From positions 56,916,001-56,980,000 of the forward strand of contig OX597832.1 in assembly GCA_951406725.2 (NCBI GenBank): 64,000 bases of DNA. Direction: 5' to 3'. Positions within the stretch are counted from its first letter, which is position 1, and each line of letters begins with the position of its first letter. A program made the translations under genes and the position numbers. The notes beneath the pieces were generated by a model, which worked only from the letters and a program-made list of their open reading frames with translations, was not told where the DNA came from and made no database searches. Below, piece by piece: positions 3,186-39,487 of this stretch. Source of the DNA: Octopus vulgaris. Lineage: Eukaryota.

Positions 3186-3860
3186 ACATTGCCTCACCGA
3201 GGCAATGACTAATGACCGGGACCTTTGGAAATATGCTGTGCTTGAGAAGACTTGGCAAGCTCAAGTGAGACCATAACCTTGTGGCCTGTGCAAGGGGTGT
3301 AACCAACCCACTTATGCGTACCTTTCCTTCACTGGACACTAAACTCTACTTGTGAAGACCTGTTGAGGCAAGTGAAATCGAAATCGAAATCAAATTCAAT
3401 AACTGGCATCTGTTGCTAGTGGAGCGCTAAGAGTACCATACAAGTGTGATTGTTGCCAAGAGCAACAAGCTGGCCTCCGTGCCGGTGGCACATAAAAAGC
3501 ACCATTTGAGTGTAATTGTTACCTGCGTTGCCTTACTGGCAATTGTGCTGGTGGCACGTGAAAAAACATTCGAGCAAGGTCGTTGCCAGTGCCGCTGTGC
3601 AGGTGGCACATAAAAAGCACCATTTGAGTGTGGCCATTACCAGTACCGCCTGACTGGCCCTCATGCCAGTGGCACATAAAAGCACCCATTACACTCTCGG
3701 AGTGGTTGGCATTAGGAAGGGCATCCAGCTGTAGAAACACTGCCAGATCAGATTTGAACCAGGTGCAGCCATCTGGTTTGCCAGACCTCAGTCAAATCGT
3801 CTAACCCATGCTAGCGTGGAAAGCGGACGTTAAACGATGATGATGAGGATGATGATGATG
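3186..3860 (+). mobile_element. RTE-type LINE 3' end (family C), longest copy
   Basis: Begins with LTEAMTNDRDLWKYAVLEKT, resembling the DR..W C-terminus of RTE ORFs. Followed by a 3'UTR with internal ggtggcacrtaaaaagcacc repeats and a (GAT)n tail. Other copies at about 5488-5850, 10508-10894, 14519-14920(-), 32400-32620(-), 36460-36780(-), 37870-38065, 44656-44810, 46005-46270(-), 53705-53905, 57980-58180(-) and 59965-60195. Confidence 0.7.
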
Positions 3861-5857: not shown

Positions 5858-6253
5858 CTCTTTTACTTGTTTCAGTCATTTGACTGCGGCCATGCTGGAG
5901 CACTGCCTTTAGTCGAGCAAATCAACCCCAGGACTTATTCTTTGTAAGCCTAGTACTTATTCTATTGATCTCTTTATTTTCTGCCAAACCGCTAAGTTAC
6001 GGGTACGTAAACACACCAGCATCGTTTGTCAAGTGATGTTGGGGGGGTGGGGTGGACAAACACAGACACACAAACATACACACACATATACATACATATA
6101 CGACGGGCTTCTTTCAGTTTCCGTCTACCAAATCCACTCACAAGGCTTTGGTCGGCCTGAGGCTATAGTAGAAGACACTTGCCCAAGGTGCCACGCAGTG
6201 GAACTGAACCCGGAATCATGTGGTTCTTAAGCAAGCTACTTACCACATAGCCA
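5858..6253 (-). mobile_element. tRNA-derived SINE family A
   Basis: Reverse complement of the full-length copy at 17071-17488. Confidence 0.9.
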
Positions 6254-6610
6254 TGATGATGATGATGATGATGAAGAATTTAGTAAAAAAAATAGTATGA
6301 AACTTCGATGGAAGGCTTTGATTTTGATCACTTTAACCCATTTTTTATCATATTTCTGATATTTCTGTTGAAATGCACTAATTTTGTTTCAATTCATTTC
6401 ATAACTAATGCAGGATTGCTTAAAATAACTTGGTCATTATTTATTCGGTGTGGGGAAACAAATTAATGAGGAATCTGATGCAAGGTTTCAATTTAGAGGT
6501 CATGGAACCAGGCATGGTTGGTCTCAGGCTGATTGATATTAAGAGAATTAAACATCCCTGTAAAGCTTGGAAACCGTGATAAACTGGAGAAGGTGGATGA
6601 AGAGGGTAAT

Positions 6611-13591: not shown

Positions 13592-13863
13592 GTGTGAGTG
13601 AGTGTGTGTATGTATGGAATAAGCAGAGCAAGAGCACATACACAAACATGCGAAGACGGAAAGTGTTGCTGAAGAGGTCACAGGTGTGTGATAAAAGATT
13701 TCTGGACAATGGACATAAGTTAGAATAAGAACAGTAATAAACGAGTGAAGAACTCAATATATAGTGCGTGTGTTATTTGGCAAAAAAAAAAAAGAGACCT
13801 TCCTGAAATACAATATATATGTACTGGCGTTGATGTGGCAACATTTGAAATATTGTCTAGGTA

Positions 13864-15694: not shown

Positions 15695-15731
<37 letters not shown>

Positions 15732-15735
<4 letters not shown>

Positions 15736-15976
15736 GCAGCATGGAAGATGTTTATAAGCCATTTAAGAAATACACAAACACTGTTAGATTCACTTCAACA
15801 TTTAAATATAATTTGTCAAAATATTTTCGTCGCTTTGAGACTGCGACCTGTTCACTGACAAAACTTTGTGCTGCAGCACGAAAATATTTTGACAAATCAA
15901 ATTTAAATGTTGAAGTGAATCTAACGGTTTTTGCATGTTTCTTAAATGGCTTATAAACACCTTCCACGCTGCAATT
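15732..15976. repeat. Inverted repeat with ~99-bp arms (Penelope-like terminal repeat)
   Basis: 15732-15830 is the reverse complement of 15878-15976 with few mismatches. It abuts (TA)n. Confidence 0.9.
15812..15862 (-). ncRNA. Hammerhead-like motif with G3-C8 core variant
   Basis: tttgtca-GTGAACA-g-gtcgc(agtctcaaa)gcgac-GAAA-atat-TT-tgacaaa. Confidence 0.6.
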
Positions 15977-16060
15977 GTTTTCGCTCCAGCACACGATCTC
16001 AGATCAAGTCACTCGCTCTGCAAGTACATCTCACAGGGTGAGATATTCAGCAACAGTACT

Positions 16061-16334
16061 TTGTAGTAAAGATTATTTGCCAACATAACATGGCAGTCCT
16101 GGTTAAGGACTACTGTTGCTGTAAATTAGCCCCAGAAATAACCCAGAAACCACGATACACAGATATTGTTTTGAGCTGAGTTGGGATGCTAGATTCCCTT
16201 GTTCAAAAATATAAGGACGCAGATCGTGTTGTATAACCAGCTGGAAACGATGTCTTCTGGGGCTAAATTACAGCAACATTCGTCCTAAACCAGGACTGCC
16301 ATGTTATTATGTTGGCAAACAATCTTTGCTACAA
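16061..16334. repeat. Inverted repeat with ~78-bp arms
   Basis: 16061-16137 pairs with 16255-16334. Ends at a TA tract. Confidence 0.9.
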
Positions 16335-17070
16335 GTATATATATGTTATGCATTTATATACATACGTGCAAACCAAGTTTTCAGTCAAATGAGAATGAGA
16401 TCAGTATAGGAAATATTAGATAAACTCACATCCCCTACATGTTTTCATCCCCTCTCAGCCTCCCACACTGCCAATCTCTCTCATGCTTCTCTCTCGTGCT
16501 TCACAAATCCTGCGGAATGGTAAAGGACTCAACCAGTGTTTTTACTCCAAATGCATTTTAATCATAACAGTAAATAGCGGAATACTGTGTGACAAGCAAA
16601 CAGCATCATTTGATGAGAGTCTGGGAGCAGATAACCAATAGATGAGTCATCAGACAAGAGGTAAGAAGATAAAAGAAAGAGGAAGCGTTTGAGGTTTATT
16701 GCTCTGGTCATCATTATAAATGAATGAGTGACAAGATCAATGAAGCTTCAATAATGTGCTTCAACTGCTGAAGTACCTAAAGTGTGTCATGTGTTTATTT
16801 AAAAAAAAAAAAAAAGATATGAAGCTTTAGAAAAACTGTTCCAGTCTTGGAAAACTGTTTATTCATAATTTTGTTATGATTAAATAGACAAGATAACCAA
16901 TAGTTTTGTTTGTAGATATATATATTTTTTTTAATGAATTTTTAATTTAAGAATTAAAAAAAAAAAAAAAATCTTCAGTGGTTTATAAAGTGGATAGATG
17001 GTTAGACAAGAGACAAGACACACAGACAGACAGATAACTACAAGTTGTATTTTAACCCTTTTGTTACCAT

Positions 17071-17488
17071 AGGCGCAGGAGTGGCTGTGTGGTAAGTAGC
17101 TTGCTAACCAACCACATGGTTCCGGGTTCAGTCCCACTGCGTGGCATCTTGGGCAAGTGTCTTCTGCTATAGCCCCGGGCCGACCAATGCCTTGTGAGTG
17201 GATTTGGTAGACGGAAACTGAAAGAAGCCTGTCGTATATATGTATATATACATATATATGTGTGTGTGTGTGTATGTCTGTGTTTGTCCCCCTAGCATTG
17301 CTTGACAACCGATGCTGGTGTGTTTATGTCCCCGTCACTTAGCGGTTCGGCAAAAGAGACCGAAAGAATAAGTACTGGGCTTACAAAGAATAAGTCCCGG
17401 GGTCGATTTGCTCAGCTAATGGCGGTGCTCCAGCATGGCCGCAGTCAAATGACTGAAACAAGTAAAAGAATAAAAGAATAAAAGAATA
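17071..17488 (+). mobile_element. tRNA-derived SINE family A, full length (CORE-like central domain)
   Basis: A-box tggctgtgtgg, B-box ggttcagtcc, CORE-like cttgggcaagt, an internal (TA/TG)n and a (TAAAAGAA)n tail. About 20 copies or fragments occur in the window. Confidence 0.9.
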
Positions 17489-20131: not shown

Positions 20132-20502
20132 TACTCTTTTACTCTTTTCAGTCATTTGACTGTGGCCATGCTGGAGCACTGCCTTTAGTCGAGCAAATCG
20201 ACCCCAGGACTTATTCTTTGTAAGCCTAGTACTTATTCTATCAGTCTCTTTTGCCGAACCGCTAAGTTACGGGGATGTAAACACACCAGCATCAGTTGTC
20301 AAGCAATGTTGTGGAGACAAACACAGACACACAAACATATACACACACACATACATATACATATGTATACATATATACGACGGGCTTCTTTCAGTTTCTG
20401 TCTACCAAATCCACTCAAAAGGCTTTGGACTGCCCGAGGCTATAGTAGAAGACACTCGCCCAAGGTGCCATGCAGTGGGACTGGACCCAGAACCATGTGG
20501 TT

Positions 20503-20503
<1 letters not shown>
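20132..20503 (-). mobile_element. SINE family A
   Basis: Reverse complement of 17071-17488, 5' end clipped. Confidence 0.9.
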
Positions 20504-20539
<36 letters not shown>

Positions 20540-20620
20540 ATATATATATATATAATAGAAAATTTAGACAAATACGTATAAGTTAGTGTGTTTAAATATT
20601 AAGTAGACCATTTATATAGT

Positions 20621-39014: not shown

Positions 39015-39412
39015 CTCTTTAACTTGTTTCAGTCATTTGATTGCGGCCATGCTGGAGCACCGCCTTTATAGTCAAGCAAATCGACCCCAGGACTTATTCT
39101 TTGGAAGCCTAGTACTTATTCTATCAGTCTCTTCTGCTGAATTGCTAAGTTACAGGGACGTAAACACACCAGCATCAGTTGTCAAGCAATGTTGGGGAGG
39201 GGGGGACAAACACAGACACACAAACATATATATACATATACATATATACGATGGGCTTCTTTCAGTTTCTGTCTACCAAATCCACTCAGAAGGCTTTGGT
39301 CGGCCCGAGGCTATAGTAGAAGACACTTTCCCAAGGTGCCACACAGTGGGACTGAACCCAGAACCATATGGTTGGTAAGCAACCTACTTACCACACAGCC
39401 ACTCCTGCGCCT
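39015..39412 (-). mobile_element. SINE family A
   Basis: Full-length reverse-complement match. Others at 44400-44640(-), 48718-49195(+), 53042-53450(-), 55423-55800(+), 57538-57940(-) and 60253-60605(-). Confidence 0.9.
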
Positions 39413-39487
39413 ATTGCAAACATTGACACTAATTGTACGATGGTGCTGTTGATAACTGTCATGTAATGTCAAGACAAGGAGACAGAT

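Follow-up and report, generated by a model that had tools for sequence, protein, structure and literature searches.

A candidate hammerhead ribozyme with a swapped 3-8 core pair in the pseudo-LTRs of a Penelope-like retrotransposon family of Octopus vulgaris

A 64,000-nt stretch of Octopus vulgaris DNA (contig OX597832.1, positions 56,916,001 to 56,980,000; hereafter the window) contains a 51-nt hammerhead motif on its minus strand at 15812-15862. Judged by its sequence context, the motif is a minimal type I hammerhead located in the pseudo-long terminal repeat (pLTR) of a young family of Penelope-like retrotransposons, termed here family A. We consider it rather probable that the ancestral C3-G8 pair of this pLTR hammerhead was replaced by G3-C8, now present in about 91% of copies, and that two copies paired through helix III can still cut slowly, probably aided by protein.

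The motif and its parent element

The letters confirm the motif, which reads from 15862 to 15812 UUUGUCA GUGAACA G GUCGC (9 nt) GCGAC GAAA AUAU UU UGACAAA. It comprises a stem I of 7 bp, a stem II of 5 bp, a core with G3 and C8 and one additional G 3' of A9, and a helix III formed by the palindrome AAUAUU; the predicted cut falls after U17, between 15819 and 15818. The three-way junction with stems I and II is present, as are the Watson-Crick 3-8 pair, U4, G5, A6 and A9, G12, A13 and A14, the A15.1-U16.1 pair and H17 of the hammerhead core. The consensus core CUGANGA is not matched by family A (GUGAACA in 7,710 of 8,483 counted motifs), and the family A motif is therefore classed as a hammerhead variant. 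A relaxed descriptor, which accepts every Watson-Crick combination at 3-8 and asks for GAAA, UH, at least 4 bp in stem II and at least 5 bp in stem I, returned this single site on both strands of the whole window, and no match in 200 dinucleotide shuffles of it. Folded in isolation, the motif forms stems I and II at −13.0 kcal/mol (z −2.3; 6 of 200 shuffles equally good). On these sequence features, the window motif and the family A motif are almost certainly of hammerhead descent. The original prediction had described the same stems, a core departing from CUGANGA at positions 3 and 8 with one extra nucleotide after A9, and a palindromic helix III of the Penelope-type minimal hammerhead, and had proposed a retroelement family behind them; the letters, the shuffles and the element described below bear this out. 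It did not mention an inverted repeat around the motif, one arm of which contains the 3' half of the motif.

A search of the genome (2.8 Gb, 227 contigs) gave 3,428 first-look candidates for the repeat in the window, the best 40 of which were scored. Family A copies have two fixed 3' ends, about 90 nt past the motif and about 60 nt beyond (the tail), mostly abut (TA)n, and frequently carry an upstream inverted arm whose cut point varies between copies; inverted arm and tail occur together in the window copy and in most of the best 30 loci. Open reading frames (ORFs) of 646-1025 aa near the motif contain YVDD and VYQIKC..YIGET, as in a reverse transcriptase (RT) followed by a C-terminal GIY-YIG domain. 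The Pfam search returned a GIY-YIG match (E 9e-5, above the cut-off) and no RT match, and homologues of the ORF carry RT-domain protein names. The best 150 protein matches within the family were 80-100% identical, with open frames of up to 1025 aa. In 12 of 12 fetched long-ORF loci the motif lies about 1 kb past the stop codon, and all 19 occurrences there are identical, with G3-C8. A full-length copy, L135, carries the motif at 3235 and 7496 in direct pLTRs that lie 4,261 nt (4.26 kb) apart, flank the ORF and are identical at 199 of 200 positions; its ORF begins at an AUG about 55 nt 3' of the cut site, the frame being broken and in pieces between the pLTRs.

Family A thus combines a single ORF for RT and C-terminal GIY-YIG with direct pLTRs, an inverted 5'-truncated arm and a tail, the features of EN+ Penelope-like elements, which have been described as pLTR-ORF-pLTR units with a tail and an inverted arm (PMC8557442, PMC11167929). 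The linker spacing C-x3-CxxC-x7-C agrees with the Nematis sequences in a supplementary alignment (PMC8557442) but not with its Neptune rows, a comparison made by eye and not from a tree with named members. Family A further resembles Nematis-clade EN+ elements (Craig et al. 2021, PMC8557442) in the order of RT and GIY-YIG, the short-spacer CxxC linker, the cysteines between GIY and YIG, the tail, the inverted 5'-truncated arm and the (TA)n targets, with the clade call again resting on motif spacing judged by eye. The window copy and its comparator are laid out as follows.

15700-15732, no strand: (TA)n microsatellite where the insertion joins its flank; family A usually targets such tracts (flank comparison of copies).
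15733-15877, minus strand: sense pLTR arm of family A, 85% identical to full-length copy L135, starting just inside the common 5' boundary (AGAUG), holding the motif and ending at the fixed pLTR end against (TA)n.
15812-15862, minus strand: the hammerhead motif (minimal, type I), whose core has G3-C8 and an additional G following A9; helix III is the palindrome AAUAUU and the cut is predicted after U17 (15819), as judged from letters, fold and descriptor.
15878-16035, plus strand: second arm, inverted and 5'-truncated, with the tail of about 60 nt, 90% identical to L135 and pairing with the sense arm over about 100 bp.
13655-13830, plus strand: decayed copy of family C (see below) with canonical CUGAAGA core and mutated GAAA, outside the insertion and used as comparator (family C comparison).

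The inverted repeat of about 100 bp spans 15733-15978, and 15730-15980 is predicted to fold as a single hairpin at −140.7 kcal/mol; in a modelled read-through RNA from 15733 to 16035 the stem I pairing probability was 0.0. The window copy is a truncated insertion whose motif is predicted from these models to be trapped by the inverted arm in a long hairpin, and it is probably not the working form. The near-perfect 245-nt hairpin, together with weak miRNA-hairpin matches of the window copy in Rfam, is what would be expected if the locus were a miniature inverted-repeat transposable element (MITE) or foldback DNA element whose hammerhead look is a by-product of palindromes. We rejected this explanation as very improbable: the arms are unequal, with the 60-nt tail on one of them, the inversion point differs between copies, an RT-encoding element carries the arm sequence as its direct terminal repeat, and homologous canonical motifs occupy the same place in relatives.

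Distribution and origin of the G3-C8 pair

G3-C8 is the norm in family A. Exact-pattern counts with fixed flanks, which are lower bounds and count arms and not insertions, gave 7,710 motifs with G3-C8, 495 with G3 and another base at position 8, and 278 without G3 (total 8,483; reversed-pattern controls 0, 0 and 1), that is, G3-C8 in about 91% of some 8,000 copies. In a set of 275 copies, partly selected for having the motif, 195 of the 200 copies covering position 3 have G there, and 203 of the 211 covering position 8 have C. The core singled out in the original prediction, GUGANCA, is thus kept across the family. Positions 3 and 8 showed no variant at 3% or more in the contigs of four sequencing runs labelled as four organisms. 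Among 106 copies from loci picked by a downstream anchor, none of 11 core columns varied by more than 10%, while 4 of 7 non-CpG columns of loop II did so, against 12 of 133 columns elsewhere (P=0.003). The single common stem I variant preserves a U·G pair. An older C3-G8 subfamily was searched for inside family A and none was found; the sole C3-G8 motif in the first 100 of the 278 belongs to family C. At three loci (L215, L209 and L258) we also observed motifs that are related to those of family A but older and more diverged, and the inverted arm of L215 reads GUGACCA (G3-C8 with C7), a hint that the swap is older than the present subfamilies.

Two further families carry a hammerhead in the homologous place. 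Family B shares 53% protein identity with family A, its copies being 97-100% alike, and its motif reads GGACCA CUGAUGC G GUCAC (6) GUGAC GAAA GAAC UU UGGCC, with C3-G8. The family C core is canonical, and 34 of 38 matches have C3 (G GUCAC (6) GUGAC GAAA GAUU UC); ORF remnants lie upstream of the motif in locus L323. Across the three families a stem II pair is G-C in family A and A-U in its sisters, and stem I and helix III are re-paired, in keeping with the stem covariation considered in the original prediction. Ten relatives were recovered from metagenome contigs: five have a motif past the ORF (three found by script, two by eye), four of them with C3-G8 and one with U3-A8, the latter (L375) together with A9C; the other five showed no motif or lay on contigs that ended too early. 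In a quick protein tree of 27 rows, from which family C was left out, families A and B are sisters (SH-aLRT 97) and all outgroups are without G3-C8. Because sister families and relatives have C3-G8 or U3-A8, we take G3-C8 to be derived on the family A branch, as a compensatory change. A rough drift estimate gives 1 in 55 for two core changes falling exactly at positions 3 and 8 and about 1 in 3 for their being complementary (joint <1%).

As observations on the sister families in their own right, family B (L276, L288 and others) is very young, with open frames of up to 1312 aa and a hammerhead with A9C and the non-palindromic helix III AGAACU; one family B insertion, an inverted pair, immediately adjoins the tail of an element of family A (L137:8300-10000); and family C has 3,373 first-look candidates in the genome.

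Evidence for and against retained cleavage

Published mutants provide a precedent for activity of the swapped pair. The change G8C lowers the rate 10^5-fold and C3G partly recovers it (PMC8495972), in a full pairwise scan no double mutant of the CUGA region other than the G:C swap gave rescue (PMC9901934), and in the Anolis Penelope hammerhead C3G/G8C partly recovers protein-assisted cutting (PMC11167929). Positions 3 and 8 contact each other in the active core (PMC3884650), so their complementarity in three states (C-G, U-A and G-C) points to the active fold. A G3-C8 variant is stated, with data not shown, to have lower activity when position 17 is C than when it is G (PMC3884650); U17, which is common to families A and B, may have allowed the swap. 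Modelling of a 208-nt transcript gave stems I and II probabilities of 0.7-1.0. Helix III is not possible in the monomer and the 6-bp palindrome permits a dimer, for which double-hammerhead folds were stable in the model (−23.8 and −27.2 kcal/mol). On such sequence comparisons, retention of cleavage by the family A motif is a moderately probable outcome, with activity predicted to be weak and to need a dimer.

A number of observations weigh against retained cleavage. U17 is a weak cleavage site, and in the 208-nt model G3 pairs with U17 at 0.67, an off-path pairing like the inhibitory C3-G17; furthermore, helix III is worth only −0.2 kcal/mol in the model, and the double-hammerhead fold lies 4-5 kcal/mol above the best dimer fold. 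Penelope minimal hammerheads cleave poorly even as dimers (PMC4209133). Conservation of 0 of 11 core columns varying is not significant alone at a background of about 10%. Moreover, 259 copies have G or U at position 3 with G8, and 94 of the first 100 of these are G3·G8 (about 245 copies). G3·G8 is thus about six times commoner than the converse change of G3 to C, which accounts for 14 of the first 100 among the 278; some insertions, such as L212, have G3·G8 on both arms, which indicates that templates with a mismatched pair have transposed.

These points lend themselves to a different explanation, namely that the motif derives from a hammerhead and does no useful cutting, its fold being kept as a structural or protein-binding RNA element of the pLTR and the swap having passed through a tolerated mismatch to become fixed through drift or through weak selection for folding. 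The approximately 245 G3·G8 copies are spread across several subfamilies, the 5' ends of copies do not pile up at the cut site (see below), family B, which is younger than family A, thrives with A9C, Naiads spread without canonical hammerheads (PMC8557442), and cutting is dispensable for insertion in vitro, where catalytic mutants still insert (PMC11167929). Such a loss of function does not readily account for the 3-8 complementarity in three states, for the intactness of the remaining nine core positions, or for the youngest subfamily sample, with 0 G8 against 11 C8 copies; we regard it as plausible but, on balance, doubtful. A low-resolution tree lends no support to a single origin, the 39 G8 copies in it being dispersed among the 73 with C8; the G8 copies are enriched in the older GGAAU subfamily (10 versus 2) and more diverged (P=0.002). 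The G3·G8 state may be a step on the way to G3-C8, a polymorphism that has persisted for long, or the product of a mutation hotspot.

To map the 5' ends of copies, a downstream anchor was used to collect arms in chromosome order; 7 of 77 were identical over 120 nt and were removed, leaving 70. Twenty-six of the 70 start within −6 to +3 of AGAUG, which lies 59 nt before the cut site, and a single arm reaches further upstream than this boundary; only one of 70 starts within 5 nt of the cut site, the ends piling up instead at the likely transcription start, a further point against cutting. A G replaces the C or T of the element before AGAUG in 23 of the 34 copies that start there without upstream flank, some perhaps through microhomology. 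This untemplated G (window 15877 region) probably stems from the copying of a 5' cap and would mark where transcription starts. An intron was considered as well, the boundary resembling a 3' splice site (..CUAAC..UUUCUCAG/AUG); no matching donor was found upstream, however, and no exon 1 is common to the 34 short copies, so that a transcription start with a G derived from the cap is the better fit.

If the motif does cleave as a dimer, the following course can be proposed. Capped transcription would begin at AGAUG, 59 nt ahead of the cut site, and a lone motif, without cutting, would give short capped RNAs copied whole from tail sites, yielding thousands of short insertions; whole copying of transcripts is expected of a motif inactive as a monomer and equally of a dead one. 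Where two motifs are present, in full-length or tandem transcripts, a double hammerhead could form by pairing through palindromic helix III, with both pLTRs of one full-length RNA, or arrays such as that at locus L160, as partners. A slow cut after UUU in the dimer, probably aided by the protein of the element, would then free the capped leader from the ORF start about 55 nt downstream and split tandem RNA into units.

Two side observations concern family A copies. L160 (and L159) on contig C28 is a retrozyme-like head-to-tail array of at least eight pLTR units, 166-192 nt apart, each with a G3-C8 motif and a (TA)n spacer. At L130:7981-8035, 7 A-to-G differences in run X9 (guessed to be RNA), versus 1 in the other three runs, make the hairpins of inverted copies candidates for A-to-I editing.

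Known hammerheads and neighbouring elements

Family A shares with the metazoan Penelope minimal hammerheads (Cervera and de la Pena 2014, PMC4209133) the type I topology, the location in pLTRs, the extra residue that separates positions 9 and 10.1, G10.1-C11.1, a short palindromic helix III and thousands of mostly solitary copies; it differs in having G3-C8, the core covariation in the part of that survey available being U3-A8 only (Schistosoma Cercyon). Natural U3-A8 hammerheads (Perreault et al. 2011, PMC3088659; PMC4209133) are likewise natural compensatory 3-8 changes, but they require two transitions with a U·G wobble route, in contrast to the two transversions to G-C, which have no paired one-step intermediate from C-G. 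The engineered C3G/G8C form of PAc (Poseidon_Ac; Frangieh et al. 2024, PMC11167929) shares the G3-C8 core pair and a pLTR layout with two fixed 3' ends downstream (pLTR end and tail). There it is a laboratory rescue mutant with demonstrated partial, protein-assisted activity, whereas family A carries it as natural sequence. Non-LTR retrozymes (bioRxiv 10.64898/2026.07.22.740005) consist of head-to-tail pLTR-sized units each with a hammerhead, as in the eight-unit L160 array; family A differs in occurring mostly as single copies or inverted pairs and in having an autonomous partner.

The Rfam 15 hammerhead models, at E values up to 10, matched neither the window, nor a young family A copy, nor a canonical family C copy. 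The expectation in the original prediction that the ribozyme is missed by standard searches thus stands for any CUGANGA descriptor; the Rfam miss is not caused by the swap, since the canonical core of family C is missed too. About 150,000 Penelope-linked hammerhead variants have reportedly been collected by Lunse et al. In the full-text literature, covered mainly through open access and with the survey supplements of 2011 and 2014 and Lunse et al. 2017 outside, we found no natural G3-C8, only engineered ones, and a prior sighting is possible.

It is conceivable, and we put it forward tentatively, that family A holds the first natural, lineage-fixed G3-C8 hammerhead, active in a spreading retrotransposon; a two-transversion valley would then have been crossed, with the G3·G8 intermediate recorded in a few hundred copies and with U17 as the enabling base that avoids the inhibitory G3-C17. 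If so, natural covariation of the 3-8 contact, first observed in a crystal structure, would be completed (C-G, U-A and G-C), G-C having been known so far from laboratory mutants only. Descriptors that require CUGANGA or UUGANAA miss whole families, and claims of hammerhead-less Penelope clades may consequently need revisiting. The families bear on the open question of whether Penelope hammerheads have any role, and one genome provides a comparative panel of sister families with G3-C8, with C3-G8 plus A9C and with the canonical core, together with natural mismatched copies.

Other elements were noted alongside. A further family with RT and GIY-YIG, whose long linker looks Neptune-like by eye, lies near family A copies (L092:3026-5465 and L097:8549-9998). 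In the window, a second, unrelated element with inverted ends of about 75 bp (16057-16335) adjoins the tail of the family A insertion, and two abundant dispersed repeat families of the size of short interspersed nuclear elements (SINEs) have 6-11 copies each, for example at 6052-6303, 17069-17382, 20132-20580 and 39015-39451.
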